In this document: positions 2,459 through 31,880 of the stretch, piece after piece
Position numbering within the stretch: position 1 is the first letter of the stretch
How the letters are laid out: every line of letters starts with the position of its first letter
DNA from: Flavobacteriaceae bacterium
GTDB taxonomy: Bacteria > Bacteroidota > Bacteroidia > Flavobacteriales > Flavobacteriaceae
Direction: 5' to 3'
Assembly (NCBI GenBank): GCA_049791475.1
Contig: JBAQZZ010000016.1
Span: 8,395-72,394, forward strand
Length of the DNA stretch: 64,000 bases
Notes under the pieces: generated by a model
Told to the model about the DNA's origin: nothing
The model's database searches: none
The model's input: the letters and a program-made list of their open reading frames with translations, nothing else
Translations under genes and position numbers: made by a program

Positions 2459-3991
2459 ATGAGCAACAAAAAAACCATAAAATCTGCGTTAATATCAGTT
2501 TTCAGTAAAGACGGATTAGAACCTATTGTCAAAAAATTAAACGACCAAGGTGTAACCATATACTCTACTGGTGGAACTGAAAAATTTATAAAAGATTTAG
2601 GCATTGATGTTATCCCTGTTGAAGATGTGACATCTTACCCATCTATTCTTGGTGGTCGTGTAAAAACATTGCATCCAAAAGTATTTGGCGGTATTTTAAA
2701 CCGTCAAAATCACGAAGGTGATATTGCCGAATTAATTGAATATGAGATTCCGCAAATTGATGCCGTAATTGTTGATTTATATCCGTTTGAAAAAACAGTT
2801 GCTTCTGGCGCTAGCAATCAAGATATTATTGAAAAAATAGATATTGGTGGTATTTCATTAATTCGTGCGGCTGCTAAAAATTATGCTGATGTTATTTGTG
2901 TGTCTTCAGTTGATAATTATGTAGAATTTTTAGAATTAATATCTAAAAATAACGGCACTATTTCTGAGGAAGATAGAAAACGTTTCGCTGGAAAAGCTTT
3001 TAATGTTTCTTCGCATTACGATACTGCCATTTTTAATTACTTCAACAAAAATCATGAAGAAGCTGTTTTAAAAATTAGTGAAACCAACGGAAAGGTTTTA
3101 CGGTACGGAGAAAACCCACACCAAAAAGGTTTTTTCTTTGGAGATTTTGATGAATTATTCAATAAACTTCATGGAAAAGAATTAAGTTATAATAACCTTT
3201 TAGATGTTGATGCCGCAGTAAATTTAATGCTAGAGTTTAAAAATGACGCACCAACATTTGCTATTTTAAAACACAATAATGCTTGTGGTTTAGCGCAGCG
3301 TGAAACACTTCATCAAGCTTACGTTGATGCATTAGCTGGCGATCCAGTTTCTGCTTTTGGTGGTGTTTTAATTAGTAATAAAGAAATTGATTTAGCTACC
3401 GCCGAAGAGATTCATAAGTTATTTTGTGAAGTGGTTATTGCGCCTTCTTTCTCTAATGAAGCTTTAGAACTCTTGAAAGGCAAAAAAAATAGGATTTTAT
3501 TAATTCTTCACGATATTCCGTTTCCAGAAACAACTGTTAGAAGTTGTTTAAATGGAGTTTTAGTTCAAGATAGAAACAATATTACAGATTCTGTTGAAGG
3601 TTTAAAAAATGTAACTAATACTACACCTACAACTAACGAAATTGACGATTTAATTTTTGCTTCAAAAATTTGCAAGCACACAAAATCTAATACCATAGTT
3701 TTAGCAAAAAACAAACAGCTGTATGCTAGCGGAACTGGGCAAACCAGTCGTGTGGATGCTTTACAACAAGCTATTCATAAAGCGCAATCGTTTAATTTTG
3801 ATTTAAAAGGTGCTGCTATGGCGAGTGATGCCTTTTTTCCGTTTCCCGATTGTGTAGAGATTGCAAAAAATGCTGGTATAACAGCCGTAATTCAACCAGG
3901 CGGTTCAATAAAAGATCAATTGAGTATTGATTATTGTAATGAAAACAATGTAGCCATGGTAATGACGGGCACAAGACACTTTAAGCATTAA
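2459..3991 (+). CDS. purH: bifunctional AICAR transformylase / IMP cyclohydrolase
   Basis: 510 aa. N-terminal MGS-like domain 'ALISVFSKDGL..STGGT' and C-terminal AICARFT domain ending 'TGTRHFKH'. Confidence 0.97.
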   Translation: MSNKKTIKSALISVFSKDGLEPIVKKLNDQGVTIYSTGGTEKFIKDLGIDVIPVEDVTSYPSILGGRVKTLHPKVFGGILNRQNHEGDIAELIEYEIPQIDAVIVDLYPFEKTVASGASNQDIIEKIDIGGISLIRAAAKNYADVICVSSVDNYVEFLELISKNNGTISEEDRKRFAGKAFNVSSHYDTAIFNYFNKNHEEAVLKISETNGKVLRYGENPHQKGFFFGDFDELFNKLHGKELSYNNLLDVDAAVNLMLEFKNDAPTFAILKHNNACGLAQRETLHQAYVDALAGDPVSAFGGVLISNKEIDLATAEEIHKLFCEVVIAPSFSNEALELLKGKKNRILLILHDIPFPETTVRSCLNGVLVQDRNNITDSVEGLKNVTNTTPTTNEIDDLIFASKICKHTKSNTIVLAKNKQLYASGTGQTSRVDALQQAIHKAQSFNFDLKGAAMASDAFFPFPDCVEIAKNAGITAVIQPGGSIKDQLSIDYCNENNVAMVMTGTRHFKH

Positions 3992-12021: not shown

Positions 12022-12780
12022 TTACCTTATAAAAACTAAATCGTTGGGTTTTGACATGGGTTCGCTAAAGTTATACCCGCCGTAATTAAAACCTTTTAAA
12101 TCGTCCATAGATTTGGCATTTGTATCAACAACATATCGTGCCATTAAACCGCGAGCTTCTTTGGCAAAAAATGAAATTATTTTATATTTACCGTTTTTAA
12201 AATCTTTAAAATTTGCAGTAATTACTGGTACTTTTAATGCTTTAGTATCAACTGCTTTAAAATACTCGTTACTAGCTAAGTTTAAAAATAACTCATCATC
12301 TTCTAATTCTTCATTTAAAGCTATTGTGATGTCTTTTTTCCAGAATTCATAAAGATTTTTTTTTCTACCAACGGGTAATTTCGTTCCCATTTCTAAACGA
12401 TACGGCTGAATTAAATCGGTTGGTTTTAACACACCGTATAAACCCGATAAAATACGAACGGTATTTTGCAATGTTTCAATTTTTTCCTGTGGAATGGTGT
12501 AAGCATCCAAGCCTCTGTATACATCGCCATTAAACGCATAAACAGCTGGTCGTGCATTTTCTGGAGTAAAAGGCACTTCCCAATCTTGATTGCGTTGATG
12601 ATTTAATTGTCCTAAAGCATCAGAAATACTCATGAGTTTTGATAAGCCTTTTGCTGATTTTGTTTTAAGCAGTTTATTTAAACGTTCCGATTGTTTTAAA
12701 AACTGTGCTTCTGTATATTGAGCCGTTGGTAATGGGCTTTCAAAATTGAGTGACTTTGCTGGTGATAATACTAATTTCAT
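12022..12780 (-). CDS. yaaA: peroxide stress protein YaaA (UPF0246)
   Basis: 252 aa. 'MKLVLSPAKSL' N-terminus plus 'YRGLDA', 'LSGLYGVLKP.D.IQPYRLEM' and 'FFAK.ARG.MARY'. Confidence 0.88.
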   Translation of the reverse strand: MKLVLSPAKSLNFESPLPTAQYTEAQFLKQSERLNKLLKTKSAKGLSKLMSISDALGQLNHQRNQDWEVPFTPENARPAVYAFNGDVYRGLDAYTIPQEKIETLQNTVRILSGLYGVLKPTDLIQPYRLEMGTKLPVGRKKNLYEFWKKDITIALNEELEDDELFLNLASNEYFKAVDTKALKVPVITANFKDFKNGKYKIISFFAKEARGLMARYVVDTNAKSMDDLKGFNYGGYNFSEPMSKPNDLVFIR

Positions 12781-12797
12781 GAATAATACTATTTTTT

Positions 12798-12823
12798 GTC
12801 ATTCCCGCGAAGGCGGAAATCTC
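12798..12823. repeat. small 'gtcattcc..ggaaatc' hairpin repeat
   Basis: gtcattcccgcgaaggcggaaatctc forms a 7/8-bp stem with a GAAG loop. Similar units are at 16982, 50859 and 60681. Confidence 0.5.
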
Positions 12824-12930
12824 ATATTTCTTTTATTTTCAAATTTACGATTACTAATTTACTTTAGAAATTTAAGATTAGAATTATTTGTGATGAGATT
12901 ATAAATGGAATTGATGTTGAAATTTAAAAA

Positions 12931-13013
12931 ACTTGACTTTGTAAAAAATTTCACCTAATTTCGTTTAACAGCTGATATAAAATATTAAAACGATTTCATG
13001 TCATTAAGGCATT
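12931..13013 (+). promoter_or_regulatory. conserved 83-nt 5' cassette block (promoter-like TTG..TAATTTCG plus hairpin), copy 1
   Basis: An ungapped hand alignment to 31057-31139 gives 65/83 identities. It contains TTG (12933), a near-consensus -7 box TAATTTCG (12956-12963), and the hairpin tcgtttaa-N16-ttaaaacga. Confidence 0.5.
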
Positions 13014-13027
13014 ACCTTTAATTGAAA

Positions 13028-13444
13028 ATGAGTATAGTTAAACTTCTTTATAAAATCTTAGGAATCAAACCAAATATGGGAAATGGGTCAGAATTAGACT
13101 TATTGTCTATAGGGCAGTTATGCTCAGTTTGCAGCAGACCTGCTGCAAAAATTGAAATTATTAGAGATAAAAACACTTCTGAACAAAGATGGAATCTAAT
13201 ATATTCAGGACCTGGTGGTAGTAATGGAAACGGTGATTTAATTAGTGAAGAAAGGAAAGAAAACCTCCTAACTCTATTCAAAAAGCCTTACAATTTACAA
13301 GAAATAAAAAAAGAGTTTTATGATATGGCTGGTTGTTGTTTGAAATGCGAAAAATTCTATTGTTCAACTCATTGGAATATTAGTGCAACAGGATACGGAA
13401 AATGTCCTGAAGGGCATGGACAATCATTAGACCCTCATTATTGA
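13028..13444 (+). CDS. hypothetical Cys/His-rich protein (putative zinc-binding)
   Basis: ATG at 13028; the track ORF starts 2 codons earlier at a TTG. It has 'CSVC' plus 'CCLKCEKFYCSTH....GYGKCPEGH' and resembles no family I recognise. Confidence 0.5.
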   Translation: MSIVKLLYKILGIKPNMGNGSELDLLSIGQLCSVCSRPAAKIEIIRDKNTSEQRWNLIYSGPGGSNGNGDLISEERKENLLTLFKKPYNLQEIKKEFYDMAGCCLKCEKFYCSTHWNISATGYGKCPEGHGQSLDPHY

Positions 13445-13470
13445 AGCAGGAAAAAATAGAAACTAAAGGT

Positions 13471-13599
13471 AACACGGTGTCTATAATTAATTGCTTGAGG
13501 CTGTGTGTACTCGGAAAATCCTTCGGATTTCCCTAACGTTCGGTTTCCTTTTACTAAATTAACCTGTAGCCATATTTCAGGACAAGACACTTCTAAAAA
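13471..13599 (+). repeat. 3' cassette block with ccTTCgg hairpin, copy 1
   Basis: ctataattaattgct (13481-13495) matches 31745-31759 at 13/15. The hairpin ggaaaatcc-ttc-ggatttcc is at 13513-13532. The block ends ..ttctaaaaa directly against the rluD stop. Confidence 0.4.
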
Positions 13600-14655
13600 T
13601 CACTCCAATTCCTGATGCTTCGAATAGGTTTTCCACTTTTCAATACACTGTTTCATATCATCTGGAACTGGCGTTTCAAAACTCATAAACTTTCCCGTTT
13701 TTGGGTGTACAAAGCCTAAGGTTTTAGCGTGTAAGGCTTGCCGTGGTAAAACTTTAAAACAATTATCTACAAACTGTTTATATTTAGTAAATGTGGTACC
13801 TTTTAAAACACGTTCGCCACCGTAGCGCTCATCGTTAAACAAGGTATGCCCTATATGTTTCATGTGCACGCGTATTTGGTGCGTGCGACCTGTTTCAAGT
13901 TTACAAGACACTAAAGTGACGTAACCCAAACGCTCTAAAACTTTGTAATGCGTAACGGCAGGTTTACCTTTATCGGCGGCGTCATCTAAAAAAACAGTGT
14001 TTTGTAATCGGTTTTTAGGATGACGACCAATGTTACCTTCAATAGTGCCTTCGTCTTCTTCCATATTTCCCCAAACAATAGCCACATATTCGCGTTCGCT
14101 AGTTTTATTGGCAAACTGCAACGATAAATGGGCCATAGCTTGTTCGGTTTTTGCAACCACTAAAAGTCCGCTAGTATCTTTATCAATTCTATGTACTAAA
14201 CCTGGACGCTCGCTAGAGTTGTTAGGTAAATTATCAAACCTGTAAATTAAGGCATTAATAAGCGTTCCTGAATAGTTTCCGTGACCTGGATGCACAACCA
14301 TTCCTGGAGGTTTATTTACTACTAAAAGCGTATCGTCTTCATAAACCACATCAATATCAATATCCTCACCAACCAATAAATTTTCAAATGGCGGATGCGC
14401 AAATAATACACGAATAGAATCAAAGGGTTTTACTTTATAGTTTGATTTTACAGCAACGTCATTTACAAAAATACTTCCATCTTTTGCTGCAGCCTGAATT
14501 TTATTTCGGGTGGCATTTTCAATAAAATTCATTAAATATTTATCGATTCGAAGTGGTGTTTGCCCTTTATCTACCGTAAATGCATGATGCTCGTAAAGGT
14601 TGTCTTGGTCTGGTAATTGCGGTGTATAATCGTCCATATTATGGTCGGTTACCAT
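13600..14655 (-). CDS. rluD: RluA-family 23S rRNA pseudouridine synthase (RluD-like)
   Basis: 351 aa with an S4 domain followed by 'HRIDKDTSGLLVVAKT' and 'GRTHQIRVH'. Confidence 0.9.
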   Translation of the reverse strand: MVTDHNMDDYTPQLPDQDNLYEHHAFTVDKGQTPLRIDKYLMNFIENATRNKIQAAAKDGSIFVNDVAVKSNYKVKPFDSIRVLFAHPPFENLLVGEDIDIDVVYEDDTLLVVNKPPGMVVHPGHGNYSGTLINALIYRFDNLPNNSSERPGLVHRIDKDTSGLLVVAKTEQAMAHLSLQFANKTSEREYVAIVWGNMEEDEGTIEGNIGRHPKNRLQNTVFLDDAADKGKPAVTHYKVLERLGYVTLVSCKLETGRTHQIRVHMKHIGHTLFNDERYGGERVLKGTTFTKYKQFVDNCFKVLPRQALHAKTLGFVHPKTGKFMSFETPVPDDMKQCIEKWKTYSKHQELE

Positions 14656-31056: not shown

Positions 31057-31139
31057 ACTTGATTTTGTAAAAATTTTCAACTGACTTCGTTTAACGTTGG
31101 ATATAAGTGATTAAAACGGACTCATATCATGAAAGCATT
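31057..31139 (+). promoter_or_regulatory. conserved 83-nt 5' cassette block, copy 2
   Basis: 65/83 identical to 12931-13013 without gaps. Same hairpin: cgtttaa-N16-ttaaaacg. Confidence 0.5.
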
Positions 31140-31167
31140 GTAGCACATTAAACCAAACCGAAAACCA

Positions 31168-31731
31168 ATGAACAAAACCATAGTATTATTATTACTATTG
31201 ACAATCGGATTTGTATCCTGTAAAAACTCAAAAAAGGAAATTGAAAGAGTTGAAATTGCTAAACAATATTTTAAGGTTCTTGACAATTCAGACTACTCTA
31301 AAATGTCTGATTGGTTTGCGGATAGTCTAACTACAATTGAAGGAGAATATAAACAAACATATTCCAAAAGCGATTATTTGGAGTTTTTAAAATGGGATTC
31401 TGTTTTTGACCCTAACTATGAAATACTTGAAATTGAGCAAGAGAACGGAATTGTAAAAGCAAAAATTTCAAAGATGGACAAAAGAATCTCTTTTCTTCAC
31501 GAAGAACCATTTATAACAAATCAGACTATAAAGTTCAAAAACGACAAAATAATTAGTGTAGATACGGAATACGTGGATTTTAATGAATCGACTTGGGAAA
31601 AGAATAAAAACGGACTTTTAAGTTGGATTGATGAAAATCATCCCGAATTAAACGGATTTATATACGACCAAAAAGAATCCGGAGGAATAAAATACTTAAA
31701 AGCAATTGAACTGTATAAAAACAAAAAATAA
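31168..31731 (+). CDS. hypothetical lipoprotein (NTF2/SnoaL-like guess)
   Basis: 187 aa. Signal 'LLLLTIGFVSCKNS'. No catalytic motif recognised. Confidence 0.5.
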   Translation: MNKTIVLLLLLTIGFVSCKNSKKEIERVEIAKQYFKVLDNSDYSKMSDWFADSLTTIEGEYKQTYSKSDYLEFLKWDSVFDPNYEILEIEQENGIVKAKISKMDKRISFLHEEPFITNQTIKFKNDKIISVDTEYVDFNESTWEKNKNGLLSWIDENHPELNGFIYDQKESGGIKYLKAIELYKNKK

Positions 31732-31734
31732 CGT

Positions 31735-31880
31735 GCTATAACACCTAAAAATAATTGCTAAATTAGTGCTTAACCAAAGGTCTTTGCAGTTTTTCTGCGT
31801 CTGATTTTCCTTCGGAAAATCCTCGCACAAAAACCCGCAACTATTCTGATACAGAAGCGTTAAACGAACTTTTTTAAAAA
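31735..31880 (+). repeat. 3' cassette block with ccTTCgg hairpin, copy 2
   Basis: ctaaaaataattgct (31745-31759) and the 8-bp hairpin gattttcc-ttc-ggaaaatc (31803-31821). The block ends ..ttttaaaaa directly against the valS stop. Confidence 0.4.

Follow-up and report, generated by a model that had tools for sequence, protein, structure and literature searches.

What is the unit that separates yaaA from rluD in this genome, and how did it come to be there? In the window that we analyzed (64,000 nt of contig JBAQZZ010000016.1, from the Flavobacteriaceae bacterium assembly GCA_049791475.1), these two minus-strand core genes flank a plus-strand open reading frame (ORF) that is framed by two blocks of repeated sequence. 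We refer to the blocks and the ORF together as unit 1. Comparison of sequences indicates that unit 1 is very likely a single gene cassette that was placed by site-specific recombination into a promoter-bearing hairpin docking site between yaaA and rluD.

A first-pass annotation of the window had drawn attention to unit 1 because of its similarity to a second unit (unit 2). The similarity stood up to realignment and goes well beyond what chance would give. Positions 12931-13013 match 31057-31139 without gaps, with exactly 65 of 83 positions identical, and the ORFs that follow are unrelated (a 138-aa Cys/His-rich protein in unit 1 and a 187-aa lipoprotein in unit 2). Both 3' regions have cta(t/a)aa(t/a)taattgct (ctaNaaNtaattgct) and a hairpin centered on ccTTCgg, and both end with t(c/t)taaaaa abutting the stop codon of the neighboring gene. 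The 83-nt match ends at the inferred recombination junction GCA↓TT (13011↓13012; the arrow marks the predicted point of strand exchange throughout), and the cassette proper of unit 1 starts at 13012, past this junction. The proposal that this is not ordinary intergenic DNA, and that it is a mobile type of gene cassette, is borne out by the ~30 copies in the genome, the patchy distribution among genera and the variable cargo. The same annotation gave the cassette its own promoter and terminator. The cassette is there, but the promoter block does not belong to it. That block appears to be a resident docking site, copies of which exist without cargo.

The 5' block has the features of a docking site

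The 5' block of unit 1 contains the following features.

12932..13011, plus strand: docking site (5' block), with a predicted promoter and a short hairpin that is the putative recombination site; junction A13011↓T13012
12933..12963, plus strand: promoter-like elements, TTG at 12933-12935 (-33) and TAATTTCG at 12956-12963 (-7), 20 nt apart
12960..12969, plus strand: outer arm R''0 (TTCGTTTAAC), overlapping the -7 box; reverse complement of the array end G↓TTAAACGAA in ~25 units
12974..13002, plus strand: covarying hairpin, with L'' GATATAAAAT at 12974-12983, loop ATTAAAACG at 12984-12992 and L' ATTTCATGTC at 12993-13002

We found 30 copies of the 5' block by iterated nhmmer in the 3.3-Mb genome that contains the window (G000), a draft that is 92% complete and in 326 contigs. 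A large number of the blocks are close to contig ends, at a distance of a few hundred nt or less (C13, C31, C50, C52, C137, C181, C213 and C218). Because the repeats probably help to break the short-read assembly, block copy counts are lower bounds. The copies have a common order: CTTGAC, then after 20 nt TAAnTTCG, CGTTTAAC, 4 nt, a 10-bp stem, the loop ATTrAAACG and the return stem. A spacer of 5-9 nt separates the return stem from (A/G)TT, and an ORF starts 18-200 nt past the block.

The TTG-N20-TAAnTTCG elements that had been proposed as a promoter are kept in all copies. The -33/-7 arrangement is the Bacteroides promoter consensus, and on that basis the docking site is predicted to have promoter activity. 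A sigma-70 promoter scan and a simple terminator scan made no calls; such models do not fit Bacteroidota. A search of positions 12700-13700 against Rfam 15 (E<=10) gave no relevant match to any curated covariance model.

The stem of the 5' block covaries. Both partners vary in seven of the 10 core pairs, and the observed covariation score was not reached in any of 500 shuffles. Among 70 copies, the stem has 58 A.C and 15 G.T pairs when read on the top strand. The hairpin that had been singled out initially, tcgtttaa-N16-ttaaaacga (helix 1), was a different one. It shows no covariation; the covarying hairpin is GATATAAAAT/ATTTCATGTC, and the partner of the tcgtttaa element is the far end of the unit (see below), not the nearby ttaaaacga. 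A pseudoknot between CGTTT and the loop AAACG was also rejected. It had zero covariation, and CGTTTAAC pairs instead with the far end of the unit. In single-sequence folding, the sites of unit 1 were not distinguishable from shuffles; the structure is carried by the comparative data.

A mini-hairpin of ~22 nt (TGCTGAACTTGTTTCAGT) is present at differing positions inside three of the 5' blocks in G000 (C50:269-364, C201:8515-8611 and C295:12147-12239). It is also within a palindrome upstream of yaaA in the congener G003 (L002, 2285-2310), and looks like a separate, tiny mobile hairpin.

We built a covariance model of the 5' block (R1) and found matches in 30 of 121 sampled Flavobacteriaceae genomes, representing 29 of 120 genera. 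Most of these genomes have from 5 to at least 35 copies. In the sample from the class Bacteroidia at large, 2 of 201 genomes had matches, and this count includes the genome of the window.

The 3' block is the cassette's own hairpin site

The intact features of the 3' block of unit 1 are as follows.

13461..13473, plus strand: R''c arm AACTAAAGGTAAC, start of the cassette's hairpin site; complementary to the cassette start
13482..13494, plus strand: L''c arm TATAATTAATTGC; in intact copies it has a 16-bp pairing with GCAACTATTCATATAC
13513..13555, plus strand: central hairpin GGAAAATCC-TTCG-GGATTTCC and T-rich run; terminator-like, part of the variable center, conserved in 3' blocks of the unit 1 type

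The 3' blocks fall into two overlapping types, of which iterated nhmmer found 22 and 17 copies in the genome (~25 blocks overall). The block is ~125 nt long. It starts with N3-C-N7-AAC, a spacer of 5-8 nt and GTATATAAATAATTGC, and has a variable center of two subtypes with a terminator-like hairpin. The distal half consists of GCAACTATTCATATAC, a 6-nt spacer and the G↓TT end, followed by AAACGAAC and C(T/C)TCnAAAAA. The first-pass annotation had recognized framing hairpins on both sides of the ORF. They are present, but their roles differ from those proposed: both are putative recombination sites, and the ccTTCgg hairpin is merely the center of the ~125-nt site. The central hairpin of unit 1 was not called by the simple terminator scan.

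RNAalifold returned no consensus structure for the mixed alignment of 3' blocks, and we therefore counted pairs in the named stems. The inner 16-bp stem, which is formed by the conserved inner segments and covaries, has 490 Watson-Crick pairs, 111 A.C pairs and 7 G.T pairs, a level of pairing that none of 1000 partner shuffles reached. The 5' hairpin thus repeats the design of the 3' site in miniature. In the cassette-specific outer stem there is a fixed A opposite C at position 10. A.C pairs on the top strand are G.T wobbles on the bottom strand. An excess of A.C over G.T is therefore what one would expect if the non-transcribed (bottom) strand folds, as it does in the attC sites of integrons, and speaks against a structure in the mRNA; we regard it as a hint and not as proof.

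Two nested complementarities connect the ends of each unit

We found that the start of a cassette is complementary to the start of that cassette's own 3' block. In unit 1 the cassette start is at

13012..13024, plus strand: cassette start b' TTACCTTTAATTG, reverse complement of 13461-13473, 11/14 matches

More generally, a cassette has, directly behind (A/G)↓TT, the reverse complement of the first bases of its 3' block (TTACCTTTA and TAAAGGTAAC in unit 1). The complementarity within a cassette's own pair extends over 14 nt, as seen for unit 2 (TTGTAGCAC and GTGCTATAAC) and the unit on C273 (TTGTGTGC and GCACACAAC). In a set of 40 cassettes from four genomes, at least 11 of 14 positions matched in 20 of the 40 own pairs, compared to 57 of 1560 (3.7%) non-own pairs. 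None of 5000 permutations reached the observed mean. The complementarity was not evident in a toxin-antitoxin cassette at the yaaA site of the congener G002.

A second complementarity encloses the first. The terminal 3' block, whether of a unit or of an array, has G↓TTAAACGAA at its end, which is the reverse complement of TTCGTTTAAC in the 5' block. Variants of these arms are compensated: CGCTTATC occurs with GATAAGCG (ends G↓ATAAGCG; L040, C259 and C307), and one copy (L050) has GTTTACC in the 5' block and GGTAAAC at the end. The order of a unit is thus a - hairpin5 - ↓ b' ... ORF ... b - hairpin3 - ↓ a', where a and a' are the outer complementary pair and b' and b the cassette-specific pair. 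This nested order is the expected product of one strand exchange, before TT, between a site a-H5-a' and a site b-H3-b'. We also tried a reading in which the block ends are terminal inverted repeats, and rejected it. A hidden Markov model (HMM) of the 5' block aligned with the reversed 3' ends over only 13-15 nt (E ~0.1), and a split hairpin explains the ends better.

Four 5' blocks run directly into a'/R'0 with no cargo: C181, C318_50175 and C298 in G000, and L038 in G077. These are empty docking sites. There are also sites with more than one cassette. Two cassettes lie behind a single docking site on C196 and L055, and C155 has runs of 3' blocks. When we compared empty sites, occupied sites and array ends, the exchange point fell, as judged from these alignments, within the shared (A/G)TT.

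The arrangement of 5' block, one or more ORFs and 3' block on one strand was found in at least 15 places in G000 and in 28 of 40 loci fetched from three other genomes (of other genera). The cargo is unrelated from unit to unit and includes a CDF (cation diffusion facilitator) transporter, alpha/beta hydrolases, beta-lactamase-fold proteins, lipoproteins, small membrane proteins, an AraC-type regulator and the orphan Cys-rich protein of unit 1. The checks that had been proposed, searching the genome and its relatives for both blocks and tabulating the ORFs between them, therefore gave the result expected of a cassette: the blocks are multi-copy and bracket unrelated ORFs. The alternative raised at the outset was an old local duplication, with similarity confined to two loci and each unit conserved in synteny. 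We reject this because the 5' block recurs across the family genomes and because those 28 loci have the 5'-to-3' block order. There are ~30 copies in the genome and matches in 29 of the 120 genera, and the yaaA-rluD junction is empty in 13 genera.

The yaaA-rluD junction and the intact sister unit

The genes on either side of unit 1 are:

12022..12780, minus strand: yaaA, left core neighbor; orthologues in 27 of 31 relatives
13600..14655, minus strand: rluD, right core neighbor; adjoins yaaA in 13 other genera

That unit 1 lies between these two minus-strand genes was as first described. We compared the junction among relatives, another of the checks that had been suggested. In the 13 other genera the gap is 65-392 nt (mostly 65-160) and has no block, compared to 820 nt in the window. 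The nearest empty junction (L006) aligns with the window to ~12931 and from there passes directly to the rluD stop codon, which shows all 668 nt of the unit to be an insertion. The junction carries different cargo in each congener. G003 has a gene for a 595-aa secreted protein and no blocks, G001 has other ORFs and a partial hairpin site, and in G002 a toxin-antitoxin pair and a further ORF are carried by two docking sites.

The tandem docking sites of G002 (L003, 2340-2400 and 3325-3385) each lie behind the same 22 nt (GTTATAAGTTGAATTTATTTTG), which are part of the conserved region upstream of yaaA, and have a loop, AATATCAATACAA, that differs from the usual ATTrAAACG. Immediately upstream of yaaA in the window there is a palindrome, cattcccgcgaaggcggaaatc (12797-12826), with related forms in the same place in G003, G001 and G005 (L008). 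It belongs to a repeat family different from the docking-site system.

Unit 2 is intact.

31058..31880, plus strand: unit 2, intact sister; docking site 31058-31137, junction A31137↓T31138
31138..31731, plus strand: first part of the unit 2 cassette, with its start TTGTAGCACATT at 31138-31149 and the lipoprotein ORF at 31168-31731
31733..31880, plus strand: unit 2 3' site, from GTGCTATAAC (31733-31742) to G31859, then R'0 TTAAACGAAC at 31860-31869 and a tail to 31880

The fold of its 3' site has z = -3.75. Its cargo had no Pfam match. At the corresponding junction (ACBP-valS), G002 has a diverged docking site and a different lipoprotein. In G011 (L112), the 70 nt between ACBP and valS are filled by a bare hairpin without a promoter, GTATATAAAATTGCAACTATTCTTATAC-GGAGCCA-CTAAACTAAC.

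A recombinase gene heads cassette arrays

Is there an enzyme that might act on these sites? No protein in 21 genomes scored above the cut-off of TIGR02249, the model for integron integrases. The top-scoring protein in each genome was a tyrosine recombinase of ~390 aa. In G000 this protein has 387 aa and is encoded on C115 (794-1957). It scored 218 bits with the XerA model (cut-off 220) and 210.7 bits with the integron integrase model (cut-off 265). Its closest solved relative is VchIntIA (2a3v). Residues 189-243 of the VchIntIA chain (55 residues that include the integron-specific domain) are represented by only 10 residues in the C115 recombinase.

The recombinase gene is followed by 1-4 tandem 3' blocks on the same strand in G000 and in 13 of 15 other genomes; for example, G130 has four 3' blocks in 2.4 kb behind the gene. 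Just past the stop codon, 15 of 15 genomes have a short hairpin or attI-like site that ends with ...ATATAAC(N)2-3G↓TT-N7, often preceded by a short palindrome. The platform in G000 is:

C115:794-4204: recombinase gene, direct repeats, attI-like site, cassette and metal genes

Here, two 20-nt direct repeats (1918-1937 and 1962-1981) precede the attI-like site (1987-2010). Then comes a 330-nt cassette with no obvious ORF, ending in a 3' block (2324-2454). The start of this first cassette, TTGTGTACA, matches the start of its 3' block, ACTGTACACAAC. The next unit starts with TTACCCACAAG, and ArsR-like and MerT/MerP-like genes extend up to the contig end. Judging from this arrangement, the 387-aa enzyme is the likely recombinase and would act in trans on the ~30 dispersed docking sites.

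The recombinase family was found in 57 of 101 sampled genera of the class. In another family of Bacteroidia (L101), a homologous recombinase gene is followed (2680-2745) by a hairpin, CGGTTTTCA-TAC-TGAAAACCG, and then by CTCATATAAATGAG↓TTAGGCCG, and a cassette terminates with CGGCCTAA (3820-3850). L101 has the same site grammar, and this grammar thus exists far outside the Flavobacteriaceae.

A model for cassette capture, and alternatives

An explanation has to account for the architecture of the units, the complementarities, the covariation, the distribution, the linkage of the recombinase to arrays and the turnover at orthologous junctions. Based on these results we infer a model whose predicted parts are the enzyme, the strand that folds, the activity of the promoter and a circular intermediate. 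The docking site would consist of promoter - R''0 (TTCGTTTAAC) - 4 nt - L'' - loop - L' - spacer - (A/G)↓TT, and before insertion would have continued with R'0 (TTAAACGAAC) and an A-rich tail. The incoming cassette would be a circle with one long hairpin site, R''c - L''c - variable center - L'c - spacer - G↓TT - R'c. Strand exchange at (A/G)↓TT, the boundary between arm and spacer, would be the work of a tyrosine recombinase from the Xer/IntI clade. The exchange would place R'c directly behind the docking hairpin and shift the R'0 of the docking site to the distal end of the unit or array. The promoter of the docking site would then read the captured gene, as Pc does in an integron. The C115 enzyme would head its own cassette array and serve the ~30 dispersed docking sites in trans.

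It is possible that the blocks are only the signals of a regulon, with a promoter and a regulator-bound hairpin in the 5' untranslated region on one side, a terminator on the other, and no recombination. In keeping with this, the 5' block always faces an ORF that starts within the 18-200 nt downstream, the -33/-7 elements and the loop are conserved, the stem covaries and the sequence is kept across genera. Signals of this kind do not account for the way in which the leader of a cassette is complementary, across the whole ORF, to the start of that cassette's 3' block, or for the complementarity between the array end and R''0, which lies over the -7 box and would be largely untranscribed. Nor do they account for the empty sites and the tandem 3' blocks behind the recombinase gene. 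In addition, the A.C excess disfavors the transcribed strand, the cargo has no functional coherence and there was no Rfam match. We consider this explanation very unlikely, and keep the promoter and terminator roles as probable secondary functions within the cassette model. A related possibility is that the blocks are portable homology arms exchanged by homologous recombination with no dedicated enzyme, for which the minimal mobile elements of Neisseria are a model. The blocks are 75-125 nt long and alike between copies and genera, as such arms would be. However, the breakpoints are at one fixed (A/G)↓TT step in all copies, including the site just past the recombinase gene, and homology arms do not predict hairpin covariation, nested complementarities or linkage to a recombinase gene. 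This reading has a similarly small chance of being right.

Two other explanations invoke mobile elements that are already known. Unit 1 could be a transposon or miniature inverted-repeat transposable element (MITE) that has terminal inverted repeats (TTCGTTTAAC ... GTTAAACGAA) and a passenger ORF and is moved by a transposase. There is indeed an inverted 10- to 13-nt repeat near both ends, the whole unit is inserted relative to other genera, and ends of insertion sequences (ISs) are nearby. But the left repeat is internal, 28 nt within the conserved block, and we did not find a consistent target duplication. A second, cassette-specific inverted pair is nested within the first, the empty sites retain both arms around one hairpin, and the ends of the IS3 element are unrelated. 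This seems to us the least probable of the explanations considered. The units could also be debris of a classical integron: attC cassettes made by a true IntI and scattered as single sites or clusters lacking an integrase (SALIN/CALIN), with later loss of the integrase. The AAC...G↓TT ends, the R-spacer-L layout, the style of cargo and the solitary insertions do resemble attC cassettes and their genomic insertions (Loot et al., bioRxiv 10.1101/2022.09.11.507474). Against this, none of the 21 genomes had an IntI above the TIGR02249 cut-off, and 55 residues of VchIntIA correspond to 10 in the enzyme that is linked to arrays. It is the inner stems that are conserved here, and the outer ones, of 13-14 bp, that are specific to each cassette; in attC the situation is the reverse. 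The recombinase gene and array are also co-directional. Among Bacteroidetes, IntegronFinder 2.0 has only In0 and one complete integron, in Salinibacter (PMC9024848). Integron debris is improbable, if a little less so than the other three.

Several points weigh against the cassette model itself. Recombination is deduced from the comparison of sequences, the promoter is a prediction, and the recombinase was assigned by its adjacency to arrays. The recombinase family is also found in genera without the 5' block (G009, G010, G012 and G015), so its presence does not explain the patchy distribution of docking sites. The dispersal of the docking sites is unexplained by the model: relative to other genera it is the whole 668-nt unit that is inserted, with no clear duplication of the target. 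Half of the 40 cassettes fell below 11/14 in the complementarity test. The A.C excess sits at three or four fixed positions, and these could be functional mismatches instead of bottom-strand wobbles. The 5' hairpin of unit 1 is thermodynamically weak as a single sequence (z = -0.4). Finally, the 3' site of unit 1 is truncated. It is intact up to ...TTTTACTAAA, after which the end of an IS3-family element replaces L'c, the G↓TT junction and R'0.

Unit 1 is probably immobilized

The far end of unit 1 and its cargo are:

13559..13589, plus strand: solo right end of an IS3-family element, 31/31 identical to the right terminus of an IS on C31 of G000 (~222-1517)
13590..13599, plus strand: A-rich tail CTTCTAAAAA, the C(T/C)TCnAAAAA tail that follows TTAAACGAAC in occupied and empty sites
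13028..13444, plus strand: cargo ORF, 138 aa (122 aa from M17, the start chosen by the gene caller), Cys/His-rich

Because the distal arm, G↓TT and R'0 were lost to the IS3-family end, unit 1 is probably no longer excisable, and its cassette is probably fixed in place. On C31 and in G130 (L056), which belongs to another genus, this IS or its ends are found 13-15 nt past the G↓TT of hairpin sites, and an IS end is also present at the valS junction in G003 (L108:1466-1490). By analogy, the IS3-family element may target these hairpin sites; IS1111-attC elements target attC.

The protein encoded by unit 1 has the invariant motifs YSGPGGSNG and C..C..FYC..H....G.G.CP.GH. We found six homologues, all on unrelated metagenome contigs without blocks. 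There was no Pfam match, no homologue among 300 other genera of Flavobacteriaceae, and no fold match at E<0.1 for the AlphaFold model (predicted local distance difference test, pLDDT, 75.8). With no homologue in the family, this particular ORF cannot be used to trace cassette mobility.

Comparison with known systems

Taken together, the data somewhat favor the notion of a "distributed integron" in marine Flavobacteriaceae: one Xer-type recombinase that lacks the IntI domain, with its own cassette store and ~30 promoter-bearing docking sites that are themselves acquired modules. With its own promoter at each docking site, such a system would express captured genes individually at many places in the chromosome. 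If this is correct, it is a second implementation of integron-style capture, with a simpler Xer-like enzyme and hairpins on both partners, and is common in Bacteroidia. It would have a feature not known from integrons, that is, promoter-equipped landing pads across the core genome where single genes are switched on where they land. It would also explain much of the small-scale variation in gene content between marine flavobacterial species. Searches for the sites would give ready access to an accessory gene pool, and an 80-nt pad, a 125-nt cassette site and one recombinase would be compact parts for genetic tools in Bacteroidota. Such systems would probably escape current integron finders, which depend on an IntI domain and on an attC model from proteobacteria.

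By mechanism, the closest system is the integron, although the integrase domain that defines integrons is missing here. As in integrons, a recombinase gene adjoins a primary site and a one-directional cassette array, and a cassette consists of a small ORF and one imperfect hairpin site with an outer arm, an unpaired spacer, an inner arm and a variable center. The ends are AAC and G↓TT, with exchange apparently at G↓TT, and the predicted promoter of the platform would read the cargo. Orphan ORFs and toxin-antitoxin pairs are among the cargo, there are hints of bottom-strand folding, and solitary cassettes occur away from the recombinase. The consensus of attC is R''(RYYYAAC)-L''...L'-R'(GTTRRRY). 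The sites here have this layout, the AAC and G↓TT ends and covarying stems, but their outer arms are long and specific to each cassette. Solitary cassettes at genomic sites (SALIN/attG) and sedentary chromosomal integrons have been described (Loot et al., bioRxiv 10.1101/2022.09.11.507474). There are also clear differences. The enzyme has no IntI-specific domain and has an extra N-terminal region of ~100 aa, and, unlike in most integrons, its gene and the array are co-directional. The primary and docking sites also form hairpins. In contrast to attC, the inner stems are the conserved ones, whereas each cassette has its own outer stem of 13-14 bp. Lastly, there are ~30 dispersed sites, each with its own predicted promoter. 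In Bacteroidetes, the integrons reported with IntegronFinder 2.0 amount to In0 and the complete one in Salinibacter (PMC9024848).

Elements that exploit host Xer recombinases are similar in other ways. The CTX phage attP(+), integrative mobile elements exploiting Xer (IMEX) and the pdif modules of Acinetobacter use host XerC/D on dif or pdif sites, with two arms of ~10-11 bp, an unpaired center and a folded strand. As proposed here, an Xer-type recombinase acts on a folded two-arm site, and gene modules are bounded by such sites. Here, however, a dedicated recombinase paralogue heads an array and the targets are many promoter-linked hairpins. Like the docking sites, Correia elements of Neisseria and MITEs are short, multi-copy and intergenic, and can supply promoters and hairpins. 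They have terminal inverted repeats and target duplications and carry no cargo, whereas here a site is split by cargo at a fixed step.

Our search of the literature found papers on integrons and on rAID-1, and in these no description of the docking-site layer or the site grammar. The closest published relative is probably rAID-1, a likeness drawn from its description rather than from recombinase identity. The description of rAID-1 elements, from Bacteroidales, is of a 5' XerD-like recombinase gene with integron-like repeats and co-directional genes (Ross et al. 2019; bioRxiv 10.1101/471110). Their definition rests on cargo of orphan immunity genes and on a recombinase that is at least 44% identical to BF9343_RS08045 of B. 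fragilis (bioRxiv 10.1101/471110). These elements are widespread in Bacteroidia, as is the recombinase family described here, with its 57 of 101 genera. The recombinase arrays of relatives have at least two co-directional genes with repetitive intergenic sequences. The array on C115 has one small cassette and then the ArsR/Mer genes, and unit 1 itself is solitary. In rAID-1 the cargo is dominated by orphan interbacterial immunity genes. The cargo here includes a CDF transporter, hydrolases, lipoproteins, small membrane proteins and an orphan Cys-rich protein. For rAID-1, the text consulted describes enriched motifs, but not a hairpin grammar, a junction or dispersed promoter-bearing docking sites.

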